The notes below the pieces were generated by a model that saw only the letters and a list, made by a program, of their open reading frames with translations, did not search any database and was not told the origin of the DNA. A stretch of DNA of 35,473 nucleotides. Source: a virus. Its lineage: Duplodnaviria > Heunggongvirae > Uroviricota > Caudoviricetes. Positions 12,162 through 28,124 of the stretch are shown here, one piece after another (positions within the stretch are counted from its first letter, which is position 1; every line of letters begins with the position of its first letter). The stretch lies in IMG/VR virus record IMGVR_UViG_2850773344_000008; one strand, written 5' to 3'. Both the position numbers and the translations under genes were made by a program.

Positions 12162-12388
12162 TTTTATGGGGCACCTTTCTGATTGATTTCATATTGGCGA
12201 GGTAAGTAGAATGACTGCGGGTGCTTGAGGCTATCTGCTTCAGGCATGAACACCAAAAGGCAGATAGAGAAAAGCCCCAGTTAACATTACGCGTCCGGCA
12301 AGACGCTTAACATTAATCTGAGGCCAATTTCATGCTTTGCACATGTAGGTTAGCCTCTTACATGCCGAAAGGCAAGGAGAAGCAGGCT

Positions 12389-12544
12389 ATGAAGCAGCAA
12401 AAGGCGATGTTAATCGCCCTGATCGTCATCTGTTTAACCGTCATAGTGACGGCACTGGTAACGAGGAAAGACCTCTGTGAGGTACGAATCCGAACCGGCC
12501 AGACGGAGGTCGCTGTCTTCGTAGACTACGAATCCAGGAAGTAA
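12389..12544 (+). CDS. Hok/Gef-family type I toxin
   Basis: 51 aa MKQQKAMLIALIVICLTVIVTALVTRKDLCEVRIRTGQTEVAVF...: single TM helix plus conserved Cys/periplasmic tail; AAGGAG 8 nt upstream; long structured leader. Confidence 0.75.
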   Translation: MKQQKAMLIALIVICLTVIVTALVTRKDLCEVRIRTGQTEVAVFVDYESRK

Positions 12545-14749: not shown

Positions 14750-14826
14750 GGCCCTTTAGCTCAGTTGGTCAGAGCGAGCGACTCATAATCGCCAGGTCGC
14801 TGGTTCAAGTCCAGCAAGGGCCACCA
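14750..14826 (+). tRNA. tRNA with CAT anticodon (Ile2-lysidine type or Met)
   Basis: 77-nt cloverleaf: acceptor GGCCCTT/AAGGGCC, anticodon loop CTCATAA, T-loop TTCAAGT, encoded CCA. Confidence 0.8.
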
Positions 14827-14827
14827 A

Positions 14828-14904
14828 CCACCACTAGCTCATCCGGATAGAGCATCAACCTTCTAAGTTGACGGTGCGAGGTTCGAGTCCTCGGTGGTGG
14901 GCCA
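14828..14904 (+). tRNA. tRNA-Arg (anticodon TCT)
   Basis: 77 nt: acceptor CCACCAC/GTGGTGG, anticodon loop CTTCTAA, T-loop TTCGAGT, CCA. Confidence 0.8.
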
Positions 14905-14906
14905 GC

Positions 14907-14981
<75 letters not shown>

Positions 14982-14984
14982 TAT

Positions 14985-15059
<75 letters not shown>

Positions 15060-15703: not shown

Positions 15704-15871
15704 CTTTCCGATAGCACAGGTCTGTCGGGGGGGGGGATATGTATCAGATGGAAAAAATATCAACAGGCATTGCCTACGGCACCTCCGCCGGCAGTGCCGG
15801 CTACTGTTTTTTGCAGTGGTTGGATCAGTGAGGTGTACTGGCAATAGCGGACACTACCATTTGTTCTTTTT

Positions 15872-16663
15872 TTAAGCAGCCATCTGATGATATTTTTCCC
15901 TGAAGGCTGCCGGGGAGATATTCCCCAGACGAGAGTGACGACGCTGACGATTGTAGAAAATCTCAATGTATTCCCGTATTACTGAGATGGCTTCATCCCG
16001 GTTATTAAAACGATAGTGGCTCAGGCTCTCATTTTTCAGCGTTCCCCAGAAGCTTTCCATCGGAGCGTTGTCGTAACAGTTACCTTTACGCGACATTGAT
16101 GTTTTCAGACCAAACTGCTCCTGTATGACCCGGTAATCGTATGCGCAGTACTGTGAACCTCGATCAGAGTGGTGGATTAGCCCGGCAGGTGGGCGCTGGC
16201 TCCTGAGCGCCATAAACAGGGCTTTACCTGTCAGCTCTTTTGTCATGCGCTCTCCCATGGCGTAGCCGACAATTTCGCACGTATAAACATCTTTGATGCC
16301 AGCAACATACGTCAGGTCCGCCACCCAGACCTGATTTGGTGCTGTAGGAGCGAACGTCTGGTTCAGCAGATTTGGCGCAACTGGCAGATTGTGGTTCGGG
16401 TTCGTAGTCGCTCTGAACTTGCGTTTCTGCTTACAGCGTAGCCTCAGCTCCTTACGAAGACGTGCCAGTCGGTCACGACCAACGATGATGCCATTCTCTG
16501 CCAGCTCCGTCTGGAGCCGCCGGGTTCCATATGTTTCGCGAGTGCGGATATGTGCCACCTTAATCTCCAGTTTTAGCCGCTCATCACTTTGTTTTCTGTC
16601 TGAGGGTTCATGCTGTACCCAGTTGTAATAACCGCTCCTGGATACACCAAATACCTGACACAT
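15872..16663 (-). CDS. IS600 OrfB, 9-codon in-frame deletion variant
   Basis: 263 aa; ...ADLTYVA/GIKDVY... junction instead of ...ADLTYVATQEGWLYLAGIKDVY.... Confidence 0.8.
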   Translation of the reverse strand: MCQVFGVSRSGYYNWVQHEPSDRKQSDERLKLEIKVAHIRTRETYGTRRLQTELAENGIIVGRDRLARLRKELRLRCKQKRKFRATTNPNHNLPVAPNLLNQTFAPTAPNQVWVADLTYVAGIKDVYTCEIVGYAMGERMTKELTGKALFMALRSQRPPAGLIHHSDRGSQYCAYDYRVIQEQFGLKTSMSRKGNCYDNAPMESFWGTLKNESLSHYRFNNRDEAISVIREYIEIFYNRQRRHSRLGNISPAAFREKYHQMAA

Positions 16664-16698
16664 CGCTTCAATGGGAAATTGTTGTCGCCATTGTTCGA

Positions 16699-17001
16699 TT
16701 AACGCGTATTTTTCAGCGACTCCTGTGCAAAATACGCTGTTGCTTTTTTTAATATATCGCGCTCAAGGCGAGCTTCATTTAACGCCTTACGCAGTTGCAG
16801 AATTTCAGATTCCAGTTCAGCCACCGTGCGGGAACCAGGAGTACCGAGCCCTTTTCTGGCGGCGGTAACCCATTGTCCTAAAGTGCCTTCAGGAAGGGAT
16901 AATCGGGAAGCGCCTTCACTGATCGAAAGTTGATTTTCAAGAACCGTTCTGACAGCTTCGGCTTTGAACTCTTTAGAGTAACGTTGGGTTTTTCTGCTCA
17001 T
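16699..17001 (-). CDS. IS600 OrfA
   Basis: 100 aa identical to copy 1 OrfA. Confidence 0.9.
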   Translation of the reverse strand: MSRKTQRYSKEFKAEAVRTVLENQLSISEGASRLSLPEGTLGQWVTAARKGLGTPGSRTVAELESEILQLRKALNEARLERDILKKATAYFAQESLKNTR

Positions 17002-17193
17002 TATTAGCTCCTTCTGATGCCATTCTATTTCAGGAAGGAGTGTCCGTTAAACTCAGGCTACCTCACAGGTCAGTCCATCACAGTGGGCTGCGATTGGTGT
17101 GCTGGGAAGTCTGCTTCTGGGGCTTCTGACTTATCTGACGAATCTGTATTTCAAAATAAGAGAAGATAAGCGTAAGGCTGCGAGAGGTGAATA

Positions 17194-17709
17194 ATGTCGC
17201 CATCATTACGCAAGGCTGTTGCAGTTGCTATTGGTGGCGGGGCTGTTGCTATAGCATCTGTGTTAATCACTGGCCCAGGTGGTAACGATGGTCTGGAAGG
17301 TGTCAGCTACATACCATACAAAGATATCATTGGTGTATGGACTGTATGTCACGGACACACCGGAAAAGACATCATGCCTGGTAAAACGTATACCGAAGCA
17401 GAATGCAAAGCTCTCCTGAATAAAGACCTTGTCACTGTCGCCAGACAAATTAACCCGTACATCAAAGTCGATATACCGGAAACAACGCGCGGCGCTCTTT
17501 ACTCGTTCGTTTACAACGTGGGCGCTGGCAATTTCAGAACATCGACGCTTCTTCGCAAAATAAACCAGGGCGATATCAAAGGCGCATATGACCAGCTACG
17601 TCGCTGGACATATGCTGGCGGTAAGCAATGGAAAGGGCTGATGACCCGTCGTGAGATTGAGCGTGAAGTCTGTTTGTGGGGTAAGCGCCCCATCAGCGAC
17701 GTCTTGTGA
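17194..17709 (+). CDS. SAR endolysin (phage 21 R-type lysozyme); last ~9 codons supplied by the IS66-family terminus
   Basis: N-terminal Gly/Ala-rich signal-anchor-release segment ([20 protein letters not shown]), lysozyme core (...[11 protein letters not shown]...[28 protein letters not shown]...); IS66-type inverted repeat starts at 17681 inside the ORF. Confidence 0.8.
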
Positions 17710-17762
17710 AAATTGTCCTGTCTGGCAACAATCGCGCCCATCTATATTGATGGACACGAACG

Positions 17763-18437
17763 ATGAATTCCCAGACAACAAAAGATATTCCCTGCTTCCG
17801 TTCTTATTTGCCTGATGCCCTGCGTTTAAGATTTGAAGATAAACTGACCATCCGGGCCATCGCTCAGCGTCTGGGTCTCAGTCATTCCACAATACATACG
17901 CTTTTTCAGCGATTTCTTGCATCCGGTATCGCATGGCCATTGCCCGATTCAGTTTCATTCGCTCAACTTGACGCCATCCTTTATGCCAACAGAAAGAAGG
18001 AATTAACAGAGCCTCAAATCAGAGAAGGCTCATGGCGAAAAGAACGGCGAACCAGCTATAGCCGTGAATTTAAGGTCCGTCTGGCTAAGCAGGCATTACA
18101 GCCTGGGGCTGTTGTTGCCCGGATCGCCAGAGAACACGATATCAATAATAACCTGCTGTTTAAATGGAAAAGCCAGTACGAGGACGGCTTACTGAGCGAT
18201 GATGACATACAGGAATGCATGCCTGTCCCGGTGGCACTGACTGATACGCCGGAGCCGACCAGACCAGTTACAAATCCCTTCTGGCGTAACAAGCATGATG
18301 AGCGCCCTGAGGGGGCTCCCGGAAACGTCCCACGGTGCGAGCTGCATCTTAAATCAGGTGTGGTAAAACTGTTTGACCCTCTCACTCCGGAACTGTTACG
18401 GGCGCTAATCCGCGAAATGAAAGGGGGTATCCGATGA
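17763..18437 (+). CDS. IS66-family Orf1 (TnpA-like, HTH)
   Basis: 224 aa; HTH segment LTIRAIAQRLGLSHSTIHTLFQRF; C-terminal half (RRTSYSREFKVRLAKQALQPGAVVARIAREHDINNNLLFKWKSQY) typical of IS66 TnpA. Confidence 0.65.
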   Translation: MNSQTTKDIPCFRSYLPDALRLRFEDKLTIRAIAQRLGLSHSTIHTLFQRFLASGIAWPLPDSVSFAQLDAILYANRKKELTEPQIREGSWRKERRTSYSREFKVRLAKQALQPGAVVARIAREHDINNNLLFKWKSQYEDGLLSDDDIQECMPVPVALTDTPEPTRPVTNPFWRNKHDERPEGAPGNVPRCELHLKSGVVKLFDPLTPELLRALIREMKGGIR

Positions 18438-18784
18438 TAACGCTGCCGACCGGTACCAAAATCTGGATCATCGCTGGCATCACAGATATGCGTTGTGGCT
18501 TCAATGGCCTGGCTTCGAAGGTGCAGAACACGCTGAAAGATGACCCGTTCTCCGGGCATATCTTCGTCTTCCGGGGCCGCAGTGGCAAAATGGTGAAAAT
18601 ACTGTGGGCCGATCGTGACGGGTTATGCCTGTTCACCAAACGTCTGGCCGGTGACCCGGGAAGGGAAAGTGCACCTGACGCCAGCTCAGTTATCCATGCT
18701 ACTGGAGGGGATCGCGTGGCCACATCCCAAACGGACAGAACGGCCTGGCATCCGGATATAACCCGTGATAAAACAAGGGAATGA
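18434..18784 (+). CDS. IS66-family Orf2 (TnpB)
   Basis: 116 aa [28 protein letters not shown].... Confidence 0.8.
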
Positions 18785-20382
18785 ACAATGAACTCCCCGA
18801 TGATATTGAGCTGCTTAAAGCCATGTTGCGTAAGCAACAGAGTCGGCTTCGACAGTATGCCTGTCAGGTCGCGGGCTATGAGCAGGAAATTGAACGGCTG
18901 AAAGCGCAACTCGACAGGTTGCGTCGTATGTTGTTCGGCCAGAGTTCAGAGAAAAAGCGTCATAAGCTTGAAAATCAGATCCGACAGGCAGAAAAACGAC
19001 TGTCGGAACTGGAAAACCGGCTGAACACAGCCAGAAATCTTCTGGAAGATGCATCGTCAGTCACAGATTCACCTGACACCAGTCCCCCGTCAGAAAACCC
19101 GATCGCCAGTAAGCCTGAATTCCCGGGACGAAAATCTTCACGAAAACCGCTGCCGGCAGAACTTCCCCGGGAGACACATCGCCTTCTGCCTGCTGAAACC
19201 AGTTGCCCGGCCTGTGGAGGTGTTCTGAAAGAAATGGGGGAAACAATCTCAGAGCAACTGGATATCATTAATACCGCCTTTAAAGTTATCGAAACCATAC
19301 GTCCCAAACTGGCCTGTAGCCGGTGTGATGTCATCGTTCAGGCACCACTTCCTCCTAAACCGATCGAACGCGGTTATGCCAGTGCAGGGTTACTTGCACG
19401 GATCCTGGTCAGCAAATATATGGAACATATCCCTTTATATCGCCAGTCAGAAATATACGCGCGACAGGGCGTGGAGCTGAGCCGTAATACCATGGTGCGC
19501 TGGGTATCAGAAATGGCAGACAAACTCCGTCCTCTGTATATAGCGCTGAATGACTATGTTCTGGAGGCAGGAAAGGTGCACGCAGATGACACTCCGGTGA
19601 AAGTACTGGCCCCGGGGAACGGAAAGACGAAAACGGGTCGTCTGTGGGTATACGTCAGGGATGATCGTAATGCGGGTTCATCCCTGCCGGCAGCCGTCTG
19701 GTTCGCGTATTCGGCAGATCGCAAAGGAGAACATCCGCAGCTCCACCTGGCAAAGTATCAGGGCGTACTGCAGGCTGATGCCTATGCAGGTTATAACGTA
19801 CTGTACGAAACGGGCCGGGTGAAGGAAGCCGGGTGCCTGGCCCACGCCCGCCGAAAAATCCATGACGAGGATGTGCGCCGTCCGACAGAAATGACTCAGG
19901 AAGCGCTCAGACGGATAGCAGAGTTATACGACATAGAAGCGGAGATACGTGGCAGTCCGGCAGAGGAACGGCTTGCAGTCAGAAAAGCCAGAAGCGTCCA
20001 GTTGATGCAGTCGTTGTACGACTGGATACAGTTGCAGAGGAAAACGCTGTCGAAACATGCGGAGATGGCGAAGGCGTTCGACTATATCCTGAATCACTGG
20101 AATGCGCTGAACGAGTTCTGTCGTGACGGCTGGGTGGAAATAGACAACAACATCGGTGAAAACGCGTTACGATCGGTGGCGGTTGGAAGAAAAAATTATC
20201 TCTTTTTCGGCTCAGACAAGGGAGGAGAAAGTGCGGCGATCATCTACAGTCTGCTGGTCACCTGCAAACAGAACGAAGTGGAGCCGGAGGACTGGTTGCG
20301 CGAAGTGATCGAGAAGCTCAATGACTGGCCGTCGAACCAAGTGCATGAACTGCTGCCCTGGAACTTCTCGTCTGTAAAATAA
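18781..20382 (+). CDS. IS66-family Orf3 (TnpC, DDE transposase)
   Basis: 533 aa; N-terminal coiled coil/leucine zipper, CxxC...CxxC zinc motif (CPACGG...CSRCD), C-terminal DDE core. Confidence 0.85.
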
Positions 20383-20414
20383 TCCTTACGCTACGTACTT
20401 CTCGGGGCGCTTAC

Positions 20415-20694
20415 GGATGTTGGGACTTGAACCGAAGAACACGGCGGTGCGGAGTCCGGAGAGTAACGGAATAGCAGAGAGCTTCGTGAAAACGATAAAG
20501 CGTGACTACATCAGTATCATGCCCAAACCAGACGGGTTAACGGCAGCAAAGAACCTTGCAGAGGCGTTCGAGCATTATAACGAATGGCATCCGCATAGTG
20601 CGCTGGGTTATCGCTCGCCACGGGAATATCTGCGGCAGCGGGCTTGTAATGGGTTAAGTGATAACAGATGTCTGGAAATATAGGGGCAAATCCA
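20415..20694 (+). mobile_element. IS2 3'-terminal fragment (about 280 bp)
   Basis: Identical to the last ~280 bp of the two full IS2 copies (end of insD plus right terminus ...GGGGCAAATCCA); abuts the IS66-family right end. Confidence 0.8.
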
Positions 20695-20921
20695 GTCACC
20701 GCGATTATCTCCGCTCTGGTTATCTGCATCATCGTCTGCCTGTCATGGGCTGTTAATCATTACCGTGATAACGCCATTACCTACAAAGAGCAGCGCGACA
20801 AAAACGCAAGAGAACTGAAGCTGGCGAACGCAACCATTACTGACATGCAGCAGCGCCAGCGTGCTGCTGATGCACTCGATGCTAAATACACGACGGAGTT
20901 AGCCAATGCGAAATGAAGTGG

Positions 20922-22090
<1,169 letters not shown>

Positions 22091-22172
22091 TGGAGCACCT
22101 GTGTTGTTCTGAGGTGAGCATATCACCTCTGTTCAGGTGGCCAAATTCAGTGTGCCACTTCAAAAGCTGAAA

Positions 22173-23203: not shown

Positions 23204-23968
23204 ATGGCAAAACCGGACTGGGAGGCCATCGAATCGGCATACCGGGCCGGAGTCCTTAGCCTCCGTGATATAGGCGAGAAATACGGCGTTACAGAAGGGG
23301 CTATCAGGAAGAGGGCCAAAAAGCTTGATTGGGCACGCAGTGGCGGTACGCAGGTTTGCAAAAATGGTACGCAAAAAAGGAAAGTGCGTACCAGCAGAAA
23401 GCCTGCCATTACTGGCCTTACACAAAAAAGTACGCAACTAAAAACAGAATCTACACCGGATACGAAACCGATACGCGGAATGCGTACCGATCCCCCGACT
23501 ACCCCATTCCAACCCGGTAACCAGCAGGCATTAAAACACGGTGGTTATGCCCGTCGCCTTCTGCTCAAAGATGAGGTGATAGAGGACGCTAAAGCGTTGA
23601 CGCTCGAGGACGAATTATTTCGCCTTCGTGCTAACAACCTTGTCGCTGCAGAGAATATTGGTCGGTGGTTGGTGTCGCTGGAAGATGCTAATGGGGACCA
23701 GGAAAGGAAGATGCTGATTGAAAATATCAGCGCCGCCGAGAAAGCAATGATGCGCAATACAGTTCGTATTGAGTCCATCGTTGGCACGCTTGCGACGGTA
23801 GGAAAAATATTTGCTGATACAGCCTACCGCAAGGCCGCCACTGATAAGGTGTCTCTGGAGGCTGATCGTCTTCGCCGTGATGCAGGTATTGATGATGGCA
23901 ATGGAGAGCGTGACCTCAATGACTTCTACTCTGACATCCAAACCGACGCTGAATCCGGCTTTACGTAG
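23204..23968 (+). CDS. terminase small subunit
   Basis: 254 aa; N-terminal HTH (LSLRDIGEKYGVTEGAIRKRAKK); immediately upstream of and overlapping the large-subunit gene. Confidence 0.6.
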   Translation: MAKPDWEAIESAYRAGVLSLRDIGEKYGVTEGAIRKRAKKLDWARSGGTQVCKNGTQKRKVRTSRKPAITGLTQKSTQLKTESTPDTKPIRGMRTDPPTTPFQPGNQQALKHGGYARRLLLKDEVIEDAKALTLEDELFRLRANNLVAAENIGRWLVSLEDANGDQERKMLIENISAAEKAMMRNTVRIESIVGTLATVGKIFADTAYRKAATDKVSLEADRLRRDAGIDDGNGERDLNDFYSDIQTDAESGFT

Positions 23969-24677
23969 TTTCTGGACTATGCGGGCACGTAACAAAGTGC
24001 TTTATGGTGGTCGGTCATCGTCAAAATCATGGGATGCCGCTGGCATTGCCATATTTCTGTCGAATAAATACACCCTGCGTTTTTGTTGTGCCCGTCAGAT
24101 CCAGAATAAAATCGAAGAGTCGGTGTATACCCTGCTCAAAATTCAGATAGACAGGTTTGGTCTGCGGCACCGTTTCCGTATTCTGAACAACAAAATCATT
24201 AACCGGGTTACTGGCTCGGAATTTGTTTTTTATGGATTATGGCGCAACATCGAAGAAATTAAGTCACTGGAGGGGATCGATGTGTTGTGGCTGGAAGAAG
24301 CCCACGCACTGACGGAATACCAGTGGAAAATTCTGGAGCCAACGATCCGTAAAGAGGGTTCGGAATGCTGGTTCATATTCAACCCCGGACTTGTTACTGA
24401 TTTCGTCTGGCGCAACTTCGTTGTTGATCCGCCCGAAGGCACTCTCATCCGCAAAATTAACTATGACGAAAATCCGTTTCTGTCTGACACCATGCTTAAG
24501 GTTATCGACGCGGCGCGACGCCGTGATCCGGATGGTTTTAAACATGTGTATGAGGGCGTTCCGGAGTCTGATGATGATGCGGCAATTAGACTGGCCCCCT
24601 GAATCTCCAGACAACCAGTATCACTTATTTAAGTGATAGTCTTAATACTAGTTTTTAGACTAGTCATTGGAGAACAG

Positions 24678-25043
24678 ATGATTGATGTCTTAGGGCCGGA
24701 GAAACGCAGACGGCGTACCACACAGGAAAAGATCGCAATTGTTCAGCAGAGCTTTGAACCGGGGATGACGGTCTCCCTCGTTGCCCGGCAACATGGTGTA
24801 GCAGCCAGCCAGTTATTTCTCTGGCGTAAGCAATACCAGGAAGGAAGTCTTACTGCTGTGGCCGCCGGAGAACAGGTTGTTCCTGCCTCTGAACTTGCTG
24901 CCGCCATGAAGCAGATTAAAGAACTCCAGCGCCTGCTCGGCAAGAAAACGATGGAAAATGAACTCCTCAAAGAAGCCGTTGAATATGGACGGGCAAAAAA
25001 GTGGATAACGCACGCGCCCTTATTGCCCGGGGATGGGGAGTAA
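24678..25043 (+). CDS. insC: IS2 InsC
   Basis: 121 aa; one substitution relative to copy 1 (KKWIAHAPL vs KKWITHAPL). Confidence 0.85.
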
Positions 25044-25906
25044 GCTTAGTCAGCCGTTGTCTCCGGGTGTCGCGTGCGCAGTTGCACGTCATTCTCAGAC
25101 GAACCGATGACTGGATGGATGGCCGCCGCAGTCGTCACACTGATGATACGGATGTGCTTCTCCGTATACACCATGTTATCGGAGAGCTGCCCACGTATGG
25201 TTATCGTCGGGTATGGGCGCTGCTTCGCAGACAGGCAGAACTTGATGGTATGCCTGCGATCAATGCCAAACGTGTTTACCGGCTCATGCGCCAGAATGCG
25301 CTGTTGCTTGAGCGAAAACCTGCTGTACCGCCATCGAAACGGGCACATACAGGCAGAGTGGCCGTGAAAGAAAGCAATCAGCGATGGTGCTCTGACGGGT
25401 TCGAGTTCTGCTGTGATAACGGAGAGAGACTGCGTGTCACGTTCGCGCTGGACTGCTGTGATCGTGAGGCACTGCACTGGGCGGTGACTACCGGCGGCTT
25501 CAACAGTGAAACAGTACAGGACGTCATGCTGGGAGCGGTGGAACGCCGCTTCGGCAACGATCTTCCGTCGTCTCCAGTGGAGTGGCTGACGGATAATGGT
25601 TCATGCTACCGGGCTAATGAAACACGCCAGTTCGCCCGGATGTTGGGACTTGAACCGAAGAACACGGCGGTGCGGAGTCCGGAGAGTAACGGAATAGCAG
25701 AGAGCTTCGTGAAAACGATAAAGCGTGACTACATCAGTATCATGCCCAAACCAGACGGGTTAACGGCAGCAAAGAACCTTGCAGAGGCGTTCGAGCATTA
25801 TAACGAATGGCATCCGCATAGTGCGCTGGGTTATCGCTCGCCACGGGAATATCTGCGGCAGCGGGCTTGTAATGGGTTAAGTGATAACAGATGTCTGGAA
25901 ATATAG
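25001..25906 (+). CDS. insD: IS2 InsD
   Basis: 301 aa; one substitution relative to copy 1 (MDS vs MDN). Confidence 0.9.
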
Positions 25907-26657
25907 GGGCAAATCCAGCAATCATCAAACTGTCTTGGATAGAAGCCGCAGTGGATGCGCACAAAACGTTAAATTTCGAACCCAGTGGAAGAAAGCGTAT
26001 TGGCTTTGACGTGGCTGACAGTGGTACAGATAAGTGCGCTAACGTTTACCGTCACGGATCCGTTGTTTTCTGGGCCGACGAATGGAAGGCCAAAGAAGAT
26101 GAATTACTGAAGAGCTGCCAGCGTACTTATCAGGCGGCGCTGGAGCGTGAAGCAGATATTGTTTACGACTCTATCGGTGTTGGTGCGTCTGCCGGTGCTA
26201 AATTCTCTGAAATTAACGCTGACCGGAAGAGCGAGAACGCATACGCGCGACGTGTGAATTACCAGAGGTTTAACGCCGGTGCTGGTGTGCATGAGCCAGA
26301 TGACGAGTACAACGGCATCCCCAACAAAGACTTTTTCGCAAATCTTAAGGCTCAGGCATGGTGGCTGGTGGCTGACCGTTTCAGAAATACGTTTAACGCC
26401 ATTAACAACGGAGAACAGTATCCTGTGGATGAGCTGATCAGCATAGATTCTCGTTGTCCGTTGCTTGAAAAGCTGAAACTGGAACTGACAACACCTCATC
26501 GTGATTTCGACCGTAACGGACGTGTGATGGTCGAAAGTAAAAAAGACCTCGCAAAACGCGAGATACCGTCACCAAACGTTGCTGATGCATTCATTATGGC
26601 CTTCGCGCCAATCGATACATCGCTGGATATCTGGGAACAGCTGGGGAGACAGGCCTG

Positions 26658-28124
26658 ATGGCACGAAACAAACAAGCCCTGCGGCGAACTGTGCAGGCCA
26701 CAGCTGATGGTTATGAGAATTTTATTGCCCAAGTAGGGATGCAGACACCTAACCAGCACTCAGCATCCACCTACCGGGCTAATTTCACCAGTCGTAACCG
26801 CATGCTGGTGGAATGGTCCTATCGTTCATCCTGGATCATCGGCGAAGCAGTCGATGCTATCCCGGATGATATGACCCGCAAAGGCATTCGCATCACTTCG
26901 GAAATTGATGCAAAAGATCGTGGCATTCTCGAATCACAACTGGATGAGTTGCAAATCTGGGATGCGCTGAATGACGTGCTGAAATGGTCGCGCCTCTACG
27001 GCGGCGCGGTGGGTTTCATCATGATTGAGGGGCAGGCACCAATGACCCCGCTGCGACCCGAAACCATCGGTAAGGGCAAGTTTAAGGGGATTCTCCCGCT
27101 CGACCGCTGGATGGTCGACCCGGCACTGACCCGCCGCATTAAAGATATGGGGCCGGACCTGGGTAAACCTGAGTTTTACGATGTGGTGACCACAGCAACG
27201 GGAATTCCTGCCTGGCGCATTCATCACAGTCGCCTGATTCGCTTTGATGGCGTCACGTTGCCATTTCAGCAGAAGATGACCGAGAACGAATGGGGAATGT
27301 CGGTTGTAGAGCGTATCTGGGATCGTCTTACCGCGTTCGACAGCGCTACTGTCGGCGCGGCGCAGCTGGTCTACAAGGCGCATTTGCGTACCTACAGCGT
27401 GGAGAAGCTACGAGAGCTTATCGCACTTGGTGGTCCTGCGTATGAAGCGTTGCTGAAGAATATCGACCTGATTCGACAGTTCCAGAGTAATGAAGGCATG
27501 ACGCTCATGGACTCGCGGGATAAGTTTGAAACCCATCAGTACAGCTTCAGTGGTCTGGATGACATCCTTTCGCAGTTTGCAGAACAGATTAGTGGCGCTG
27601 TTGGTATCCCACTGGTGCGGTTGTTCGGACAGTCCCCGAAAGGATTTTCTACCGGTGATGCAGACCTTGCCAACTATTACGATCGCATCAGTTCGTTGCA
27701 GGAGAGGCGTTTACGTCTTCCGGTGCGGCGGATACTGGACATCATGCATCGTTCGGAACTTGGCAAGCCGCTGCCGGACGATTTCACGTTTGAGTTTAAC
27801 CCGCTCTGGCAAATGTCTGATGTCGATCGCTCAACGGTGGCGTTAAACACCACCAACGCAATCAGTACGGCGCTGGGTGATGGTCTGATGACACTGAAAG
27901 CCGCTATGACTGATTTGCGAGAAAATTCTGACGTAACCGGCATAGGGGCATCCATTACCAACGAGGACATCGAGAATGCCGAAGATGAAGCGCCGCCCGG
28001 CATCGGCGAACCTGATGACGAACCGCAGGAGCCGTCAGGCGGAAATCCGGTATCAAACCAGCCTACGCAGGATAGCGAGGGCGGTCGGAGACATCGTAAA
28101 TGGTCGCTACGATGGTTCAAATGA
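26658..28124 (+). CDS. phage portal protein
   Basis: 488 aa; position directly after terminase (TGATG overlap); acidic C-terminal tail. Confidence 0.65.
   Translation: MARNKQALRRTVQATADGYENFIAQVGMQTPNQHSASTYRANFTSRNRMLVEWSYRSSWIIGEAVDAIPDDMTRKGIRITSEIDAKDRGILESQLDELQIWDALNDVLKWSRLYGGAVGFIMIEGQAPMTPLRPETIGKGKFKGILPLDRWMVDPALTRRIKDMGPDLGKPEFYDVVTTATGIPAWRIHHSRLIRFDGVTLPFQQKMTENEWGMSVVERIWDRLTAFDSATVGAAQLVYKAHLRTYSVEKLRELIALGGPAYEALLKNIDLIRQFQSNEGMTLMDSRDKFETHQYSFSGLDDILSQFAEQISGAVGIPLVRLFGQSPKGFSTGDADLANYYDRISSLQERRLRLPVRRILDIMHRSELGKPLPDDFTFEFNPLWQMSDVDRSTVALNTTNAISTALGDGLMTLKAAMTDLRENSDVTGIGASITNEDIENAEDEAPPGIGEPDDEPQEPSGGNPVSNQPTQDSEGGRRHRKWSLRWFK

Follow-up and report, generated by a model that had tools for sequence, protein, structure and literature searches.

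IS2 insertion in the large terminase gene of a Shigella flexneri prophage and the in-frame nuclease-domain reading frame it leaves

A terminase locus interrupted by IS2

The window, the whole 35,473-nucleotide stretch of IMG/VR record IMGVR_UViG_2850773344_000008, carries its terminase genes on the plus strand. An intact gene for the small subunit, terS (23204..23968, 254 aa; PHROGs phrog_370 'terminase small subunit', 3.1e-94), lies directly upstream of the large subunit gene, terL, and overlaps it. The terL gene is broken between the second and third bases of codon 223 by a complete IS2 of 1331 bp in the same orientation (24587..25917, plus strand; NCBIfam TnpA/TnpB, Pfam HTH_Tnp_1 and rve). 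Upstream of the break, an N-terminal fragment with the ATPase domain (23919..24602, plus strand; Pfam Terminase_3 6.4e-39; PHROGs phrog_3717 4.5e-82) comprises residues 1-222 and part of codon 223, followed by RLAP and a stop codon from the IS2 left end. This fragment is deposited in GenBank as AAN42309.2 and AAP16182.1 from S. flexneri. Its start at 23919 was chosen to agree with PGAP's gene model for the intact allele; the ATG at 23901, where the sequence-only reading had begun TerL, is in frame and one of several candidate starts, but PGAP starts the intact allele at 23919. Downstream, the portal protein gene (26658..28124, plus strand; Pfam Phage_portal_3, 3.3e-106) has an ATG that overlaps the terL stop codon (TGATG). 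Rfam and tRNA scans returned nothing inside 23901-26658.

The element has the length of about 1331 bp, the -1 frame relationship of orfA and orfB and the A6G slippery window that characterise IS2. On its plus strand, orfA (24678-25043) matched 'IS2 repressor TnpA' (1.4e-82) and orfB (25001-25906, stop codon 25904-25906) matched 'IS2 transposase TnpB' (1.1e-218) in NCBIfam profile searches, and the frameshift window, AAAAAAG, reads directly at 24995-25001. Terminal inverted repeats are present, with the left repeat (IRL) starting TAGACTGG... and the right repeat (IRR) ending ...GCAAATCCA. Forty of the first 42 bases equal the IRL sequence quoted in PMC3219604, and the terL copy differs by a few bases from the K-12 IS2 left-end sequences given there. 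A second IS2 in the window (5625-6955) is 99.9% identical; the single nucleotide difference is a missense change in the terL copy, and the right ends of the two copies are identical. GCAAT stands on both sides of the terL copy, at 24582..24586 (left copy) and 25918..25922 (right copy), as the sequence-only reading had said, and only once in the uninterrupted allele. The chance of such a 5-bp flanking match is about 1/1024. Other IS2 copies are flanked by the duplications CTGAG and GCTGG.

In-silico excision of IS2 together with one GCAAT gave a single open frame containing ...ESDDDAAIIKLSWIEAAVD..., with 467 codons and 1404 nt counted from ATG 23919. This repaired terL has the same length as the allele encoding WP_038341124.1 of E. 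coli FDAARGOS_944, annotated 'PBSX family phage terminase large subunit', and differs from it by 2 nt and one amino acid. The earlier claim that removal of the element restores one TerL frame is therefore borne out, and alignment to TerL families likewise identified the product as a continuous TerL. It scored 142.5 bits against TIGR01547 (cutoff 105.05) and 131.4 bits against Pfam Terminase_3 (cutoff 23.2; E 4e-38), while Terminase_3C reached 20.8 bits, below its cutoff of 26.7. The repaired protein aligned end to end with Sf6 gp2 (4IDH; E 9e-79, 38% identity), with a Walker A motif, GGRSSSKS, opposite Sf6 GGRGSGKS. TerL residues D252, D305, N441, D444 and K429 aligned with Sf6 D244, D296, N441, D444 and K428, so that an N-terminal ATPase is joined to a C-terminal RNase H-like nuclease with the catalytic Asp/Asp/Asn/Asp residues. 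In the window this polypeptide is interrupted, and terL as found there is a pseudogene.

A nuclease-domain reading frame that begins inside IS2

Downstream of the element, an ORF of 255 codons (25891-26658, plus strand) begins at an ATG inside the IS2 terminus and continues in frame into the TerL C-terminal domain, exactly as had been noticed from the sequence alone. Its first nine codons are derived from IS2 (MSGNIGANP, 25891-25917) and are followed by TerL residues 222-467. The TerL part, from Ala222 onwards, is a complete RNase H-like nuclease domain. Residues 6-241 of the hybrid matched the nuclease-domain structure of phage E217 TerL (8DKR, E 7e-66), and the ORF also matched Sf6 gp2C (5C10, 6.8e-25). 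All five aligned active-site residues (Sf6 D244, D296, K428, N441 and D444) are kept. The Ala222 codon corresponds to the homologous start of the crystallised Sf6 gp2C construct, with the identical codons GCA ATC ATC AAA (PMC4678813). Because the frame is intact, the active-site residues are kept and the ORF is collinear with a stably folding laboratory construct, the product would, if translated, probably be a real protein, a point against regarding the ORF as a mere by-product. The hybrid is already known as a deposited sequence, ABF02953.1 from S. flexneri 5 str. 8401; in GenBank it appears under that accession and EID61277.1 as 'putative bacteriophage protein', and several S. flexneri genomes have it among their deposited proteins.

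Such an ORF is a generic outcome of IS2 insertion. Two of the three frames that exit the IS2 right end are open and contain a start codon, either the ATG at position 1305 of the element or the GTG at position 1295, the open stretch being the last 30-36 bases of IS2. IS2-started ORFs are therefore expected by construction, and same-orientation insertions will routinely yield fusion ORFs; we found IS2-started ORFs at all four IS2 right ends examined. E. coli FDAARGOS_943 illustrates the other frame. We rejected this genome as an apparent match to the junction, as its IS2 is a separate insertion at another site in the gene; that independent event produced a 330-aa fusion. In this analogous E. coli insertion, PGAP annotates each half of terL as a fragment of a pseudogene. 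For annotation, the lesson is that gene callers report IS2-started fusion ORFs as proteins.

Transcription and translation signals at the IS2 right end

The sequence-only reading had further suggested that the hybrid ORF, if transcribed from IS2-derived signals, would encode a terminase nuclease domain in free form. A transcript from the IS2 promoter PIRL, an internal promoter or a hybrid promoter would leave the right end of the element, with translation starting at ATG 25891, perhaps coupled to the termination of orfB. We consider such expression unlikely. PIRL is intact in the terL copy, and its extended -10, TGATAGTCT, lies at 24634-24642 on the plus strand, as positioned from PMC3299598 and by direct reading. 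The same paper describes this promoter as weak and repressed by OrfA. A terminator scan of 24400-26300 found no terminator-like site from PIRL to the junction and on to 26300. This speaks against the view of the ORF as a mere by-product, since IS2 transcripts could run into it.

Lewis et al. reportedly mapped the hexamers of the minicircle junction promoter Pjunc in 2004. One half of this promoter is the outward -35 in the IRR, the documented outward signal of IS2, which works only with a -10 at a spacing of exactly 17 bp (PMC3219604, PMC3299598). From the spacing rules in these two papers, we assigned the -35 to TGGAAA at 25896..25901 on the plus strand, 17 bp upstream of the Pribnow box TAGACT at the IRL terminus, a distance made up of 16 IRR bases and the 1-bp spacer of the junction. 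IS2 is documented to build hybrid promoters through this -35 (PMC9330008), which would favour expression of the hybrid ORF. However, no usable -10 stands 17 bp from it at the IS2-TerL junction, where the flank reads CAATCA (1/6 matches), so the junction lacks the arrangement of an IS-generated hybrid promoter. In a relaxed scan, the -10 candidate AATCAT (4/6, 25920-25925) lies 18 bp from TGGAAA, and Pjunc was reported to be non-functional at any spacing but 17 bp (PMC3299598). The relaxed scan also returned a weak internal pair, ACGATA-17-TATCAT (25715-25743). Neither pair was convincing. Over 24400-26300, a strict sigma-70 scan detected no promoter pointing outward on the plus strand; its sole hit, against 1.4 expected by chance, was on the minus strand and reads into IS2.

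The assigned -35 moreover sits 3' of ATG 25891, and a transcript from a hybrid promoter would therefore lack that ATG. It would first meet GTG 25951, where the Shine-Dalgarno energy is -3.1; this and the other in-frame start 3' of the element, GTG 26011, were dismissed for poor Shine-Dalgarno pairing. Only read-through from PIRL or upstream phage transcription could carry ATG 25891. There, the Shine-Dalgarno pairing of -3.1 kcal/mol is about the median of the 646 ATGs in the window; that at the portal gene start is -8.4 kcal/mol. As the orfB stop codon (25904-25906) lies 13 nt downstream of ATG 25891, termination-reinitiation is conceivable. The proposal of a free nuclease domain made from IS2 signals is thus partly supported overall: the whole domain is encoded and in frame, which is what the proposal needs of its product, while its IS2-driven transcription finds no support in the sequence.

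We favour the reading that terL is an ordinary insertional pseudogene and that the IS2-started 255-codon ORF is a passive by-product, to which we assign a probability of roughly 0.88. In this reading, a lambdoid prophage that carries ipaH in the Shigella flexneri lineage received an IS2 in its large terminase gene by transposition, with duplication of the 5-bp target GCAAT, and the element happened to land in the linker that joins the ATPase domain to the nuclease domain. A same-orientation insertion in either open frame would suffice to fuse an IS2-started ORF to the downstream sequence. The hybrid ORF has no dedicated promoter and a ribosome-binding site no better than that of a random ATG, and would be made at most at trace level, through PIRL read-through or re-initiation after orfB. 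We infer that its expression is low or absent and that it has no function.

Prophage decay, relatives and known systems

The prophage around the locus can no longer function as a phage. The window holds no fewer than eight IS elements or pieces of them: three IS600-like copies, two copies of IS2 and a further 281-bp piece of it, one IS66-family element and one more element of the IS3 family. Further IS copies break the lysis cassette, the early region and the structural module, which ends truncated at 31685, and tail genes are missing from their expected place. With the prophage already non-functional, the loss of TerL would be without additional consequence.

Over 6768 bp, the window matches S. 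flexneri 5 str. 8401 (CP000266.1) with 100% identity. The same IS2/terL junction is present in several S. flexneri assemblies, a persistence that clonal descent explains, and absent from the 5426 complete E. coli genomes searched. One S. flexneri genome, L006, has kept the junction and has lost the upstream half through rearrangement. Intact relatives occur in E. coli, where 112 genomes contain most of the terS-terL query, and the TerLs of Klebsiella temperate phages are full-length, with 93% amino acid identity over 99% of the length. Literature searches found nothing on the locus in S. flexneri or on the effects of IS2 orientation.

Retention of the junction in several S. flexneri genomes, including the one that lacks the upstream half, could also be read as selection. 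The free nuclease domain, alone or with the separate ATPase half, would then have been co-opted and kept. IS2 sits precisely where the two domains meet, both halves are still open and the active-site residues are intact, yet we regard co-option as very improbable. It would rest on one insertion in a clonal, IS-laden lineage, and the 2 nt by which terL departs from the intact allele are too few to reveal selection; the loci that exact-protein look-up retrieves are also biased toward intact copies. Two roles could be imagined, a dominant-negative competitor for the portal or TerS against superinfecting related phages, or a DNA-damaging or defence nuclease; both seem far-fetched. Neither TerL half matched the PADLOC defence models at E <= 0.01, and expression signals were not found in our scans of the IS2 right end.

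In 2013, Zhao et al. reportedly dealt with how active the Sf6 nuclease domain is on its own, a point on which secondary sources disagree. A 2026 review reports higher activity than for the full-length protein (PMC13595956), which would favour co-option, but other sources describe isolated TerL nuclease domains as weak or inactive (PMC4678813). The latter source also reports that Sf6 K428, of which K429 is the conserved equivalent here, obstructs metal binding, and that the matching Sf6 domain was purified after over-expression in E. coli; both count against co-option. We give scant credence to the strongest form of the idea, in which IS2 freed a stand-alone, catalytically competent nuclease domain that is made at low level by read-through and retained in S. 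flexneri as useful. If it were true, the freed domain might, for instance, compete for the portal or TerS and so interfere with the DNA packaging of incoming relatives of the phage. Were the nuclease domain made and linked to a phenotype, the locus would be a modestly interesting case of transposon-driven domain release. As an insertional pseudogene, it is one more case of the IS-driven prophage decay typical of Shigella genomes and matters little.

IS2, of the IS3 family, widely disrupts genes in Shigella genomes, and the insertion studied here has the same element anatomy, imperfect terminal repeats and 5-bp duplication, again inactivating a prophage gene within an IS-rich genome; we found nothing substantive that sets it apart. 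As in the hybrid promoters of IS2 (ampC activation, Pjunc), an outward -35 faces the downstream gene in the correct orientation, but here the sole -10 candidate stands at 18 bp and a transcript would start 3' of the hybrid ATG. The hybrid ORF keeps the catalytic Asp, Asn and Lys of Sf6 gp2 and its isolated nuclease domain gp2C (PDB 4IDH, 5C10-5C2F), and differs from the gp2C construct in its origin by natural IS insertion, in carrying a 9-residue IS2 leader instead of a His tag, and in being a predicted ORF only. Finally, the gene order terS-terL-portal-MuF is shared between the window and temperate enterobacterial phages and prophages with PBSX-family TerL. Two examples, the TerL of Klebsiella phage ST340-VIM1phi10.1 (93% amino acid identity) and WP_038341124.1 of E. 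coli FDAARGOS_944 (466/467 aa identical), are uninterrupted, whereas the TerL described here is split.

IS2 insertion in the large terminase gene

The large terminase gene (terL) is split by an IS2 element. We read this as a routine case of pseudogenisation by IS2, here of terL in a decayed Shigella flexneri ipaH prophage, with the 255-codon hybrid ORF as an incidental, already-deposited by-product, and regard this as highly probable (about 0.88). Sequence reading and a script check place the element at 24587-25917 (1331 bp), with TAGACTGGCCCCC as its first and GGGGCAAATCCA as its last bases. As noticed in the sequence-only reading, whose coordinates all hold, GCAAT is duplicated at both IS2 ends, directly flanking the element on the left (24582-24586) and on the right (25918-25922). 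The IS2 ORFs match 'IS2 repressor TnpA' (1.4e-82) and 'IS2 transposase TnpB' (1.1e-218) in NCBIfam and HTH_Tnp_1 and rve in Pfam, and the A6G frameshift window lies at 24995-25001. A second, complete IS2 in the prophage early region (5625-6955), with its own 5-bp duplication CTGAG, differs from the terL copy by one base, a missense change at IS2 position 422 (window 25008). Compared with the K-12 IS2 left end quoted in PMC3219604, two of the first 42 bases of the terL copy differ (window 24617-24632). At the site where the OrfA-binding sequence is given as TAAATAA (PMC3299598), the terL copy reads TTATTTAAG.

After in silico removal of IS2 and one GCAAT, one continuous reading frame runs through ...ESDDDAAIIKLSWIEAAVD... 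The repaired terL, counted from ATG 23919, is 1404 nt long, equal in length to WP_038341124.1, an intact 'PBSX family phage terminase large subunit' from Escherichia coli FDAARGOS_944, from which it differs by two nucleotides and one amino acid. This allele has GCAAT once at the target site. Excision and comparison with the intact allele thus bear out the proposal that removing the IS restores one TerL ORF; the proposed terL coordinates stand, with ATG 23901 being just one among several possible starts. Comparison with TerL families agrees: the repaired protein scores 142.5 bits with TIGR01547, above the cutoff of 105, and matches Terminase_3 in Pfam (4e-38). Its residues 10-449 align with the Sf6 large terminase gp2, for which a crystal structure exists (4IDH; E-value of 9e-79, 38% identity). 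A small terminase gene lies upstream (phrog_370, 3e-94), and a portal gene downstream overlaps the terL stop codon (Phage_portal_3, 3e-106).

A decayed Shigella flexneri prophage

Segment 22891-29658 is 100% identical to S. flexneri 5 str. 8401 (CP000266.1). Database entries ABF02953.1 (8401) and EID61277.1 (M90T), both annotated as 'putative bacteriophage protein', are exact matches to the 255-aa protein, and AAN42309.2 and AAP16182.1 correspond to the N-terminal terL fragment. The 90%-identity cluster of the 255-aa protein has 1948 members and is represented by a 398-aa protein of a Logan assembly; it also holds 229-aa antitermination protein Q sequences, which suggests that the representative is chimeric and links unrelated proteins as a database artefact.

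Mapping onto the sister prophage of FDAARGOS_944, which is largely intact, sits between ybhA and pgl and has ipaH at its end, reveals heavy decay in the window. Besides the two IS2 copies, the window carries IS600-like copies at 2611-3883, 15829-17065 and 31679-32949. The lysis cassette (holin, rrrD lysozyme) is interrupted by an IS66-family element (TnpA, TnpB and TnpC ORFs at 17763-20382), which together with an IS2 fragment occupies 17682-20694, and by another IS3-family element on the minus strand (20914-22153). The IS2 fragment, a 281-bp right end at 20414-20694, adjoins a piece of the lysozyme gene.

The ipaH end of the window is inverted relative to the prophage early region. Here the ipaH E3-ligase gene (1-1812, LRR_TTSS and NEL domains) is cut by the window edge; within 1-3883, ipaH and a tail-fibre remnant are joined to the early region through an IS600-like element. 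The structural (head) module is truncated at 31685 by the third, oppositely oriented IS600-like copy. This arrangement suggests that an IS600-mediated inversion took place and that tail genes were lost or displaced. Past the final IS600-like copy, 32947-35473 carries a gene for a Mu-type transposase on the minus strand (544 aa, with domains Mu DNA-binding and DDE_2). A divergent ORF there also has a Mu DNA-binding domain, and the region resembles the border of a remnant Mu-like prophage. Irrespective of TerL, the phage cannot be viable.

RNA features of the window include C4 antisense RNA and isrK (Rfam), which adjoin each other on the minus strand in a P1/P7-type immunity/anti-repressor region (4933-5121), the sok antitoxin RNA of hok/sok (Rfam, 12219-12394) and, clustered at 14750-15059, four phage tRNAs with anticodons CAT, TCT, TGT and TCC (Rfam).

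Expression signals at the IS2-terL junction

The nuclease-domain ORF had been described as 'IS-initiated'. Its anatomy and domain content hold, while its expression from IS2 signals found no support in our promoter and Shine-Dalgarno analysis. Two IS2 promoters are described (PMC3219604, PMC3299598): PIRL, which is weak, has an extended -10, lies just inside the left end and is repressed by OrfA, and Pjunc, which arises only when the minicircle brings together an outward-reading -35 of the right inverted repeat (IRR) and a TAGACT Pribnow box at the tip of the left one. Counting back 17 bp, made up of 16 IRR bases and the 1-bp spacer of the junction, would place the outward -35 at TGGAAA (25896-25901). 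Because this motif sits 3' of ATG 25891, no mRNA from a hybrid promoter that uses it could contain that ATG. At 17 bp from TGGAAA the flank reads CAATCA (one of six -10 matches), and AATCAT occurs only at 18 bp. The first start on any transcript from this site would be GTG 25951, with weak Shine-Dalgarno pairing. A strict promoter scan found no outward promoter on the plus strand. On the minus strand, a promoter-like TTGATG-17-TATATT (25928-25900) straddles the junction, pointing into IS2 and antisense to orfB; shuffled sequence is expected to give 1.4 sites and the region has just this one, so it is probably chance.

Low-level expression of the hybrid ORF by read-through from IS2 is an unlikely alternative. 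PIRL is intact in the terL copy (24634-24642) and no terminator-like site was found from PIRL to 26300, which would make read-through into the hybrid ORF possible. Rare re-initiation at ATG 25891 is also conceivable, since the stop codon of orfB comes 13 nt after this ATG. Shine-Dalgarno pairing for this ATG is -3.1 kcal/mol, equalled or bettered by roughly 46% of the 646 ATGs in the window, compared with -8.4 for the portal start and -6.4 for IS2 orfA.

IS2-started ORFs and the nuclease domain

The IS2 right end is open in two of three frames, with an ATG at IS2 position 1305 and a GTG at position 1295, and all four right ends examined yield IS2-started ORFs. These are 255 and 42 aa long at the terL copy, 24 and 96 aa at the early-region copy and 82 and 32 aa at the 281-bp fragment; their length is simply set by the downstream sequence. 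A same-orientation insertion within a gene is expected to produce an in-frame IS2-started fusion in two of three cases. E. coli FDAARGOS_943 carries such an insertion (locus L002, 3788-5118, NZ_CP065615.1), an independent IS2 at another site in the same terL (after about nt 453), in the same orientation and with the duplication GCTGG. Its GTG frame yields an in-frame fusion of 330 aa, and PGAP calls the terL halves pseudogene fragments.

In the window, IS2 entered at terL codon 223, in the linker that joins the ATPase domain to the nuclease domain. The fragment on the upstream side has a complete ATPase domain (Terminase_3, 6e-39) and closes with RLAP* within the IS2 left end. Downstream, sequence reading confirmed that ATG 25891 is in frame with the TerL C-terminal domain: the hybrid ORF is real (255 codons, 25891-26658), starting with MSGNIGANP from the last 27 IS2 bases and continuing as TerL from Ala222. 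Residues 6-241 match the nuclease-domain structure of phage E217 TerL (8DKR, E-value of 7e-66), and the isolated Sf6 nuclease domain constructs (gp2C) match at about 1e-24. Translation of the hybrid ORF would very probably give a protein that folds as a complete nuclease domain.

We consider a selected function for a free nuclease domain highly improbable. Nothing points to a co-opted role for the hybrid ORF, and no defence-protein match was found with PADLOC models. Sources conflict on the activity of isolated TerL nuclease domains. TerL and its isolated domains are described as weakly active (PMC4678813), whereas a 2026 review reports the isolated SPP1 and P22 domains as inactive and that of Sf6 as more active than the full-length protein (PMC13595956). 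The Sf6 domain has been over-expressed in E. coli for purification (PMC4678813).

Klebsiella temperate phages carry full-length TerL relatives with 93% identity to the repaired protein. By the published construct boundary (PMC4678813), gp2C starts at the Ala homologous to Ala222, and its opening codons are identical to those that begin the TerL part of the hybrid ORF. D252, D305, K429, N441 and D444 align with Sf6 D244, D296, K428, N441 and D444, all five being conserved; Sf6 K428 blocks metal binding (PMC4678813), and its equivalent K429 is retained in the repaired TerL.
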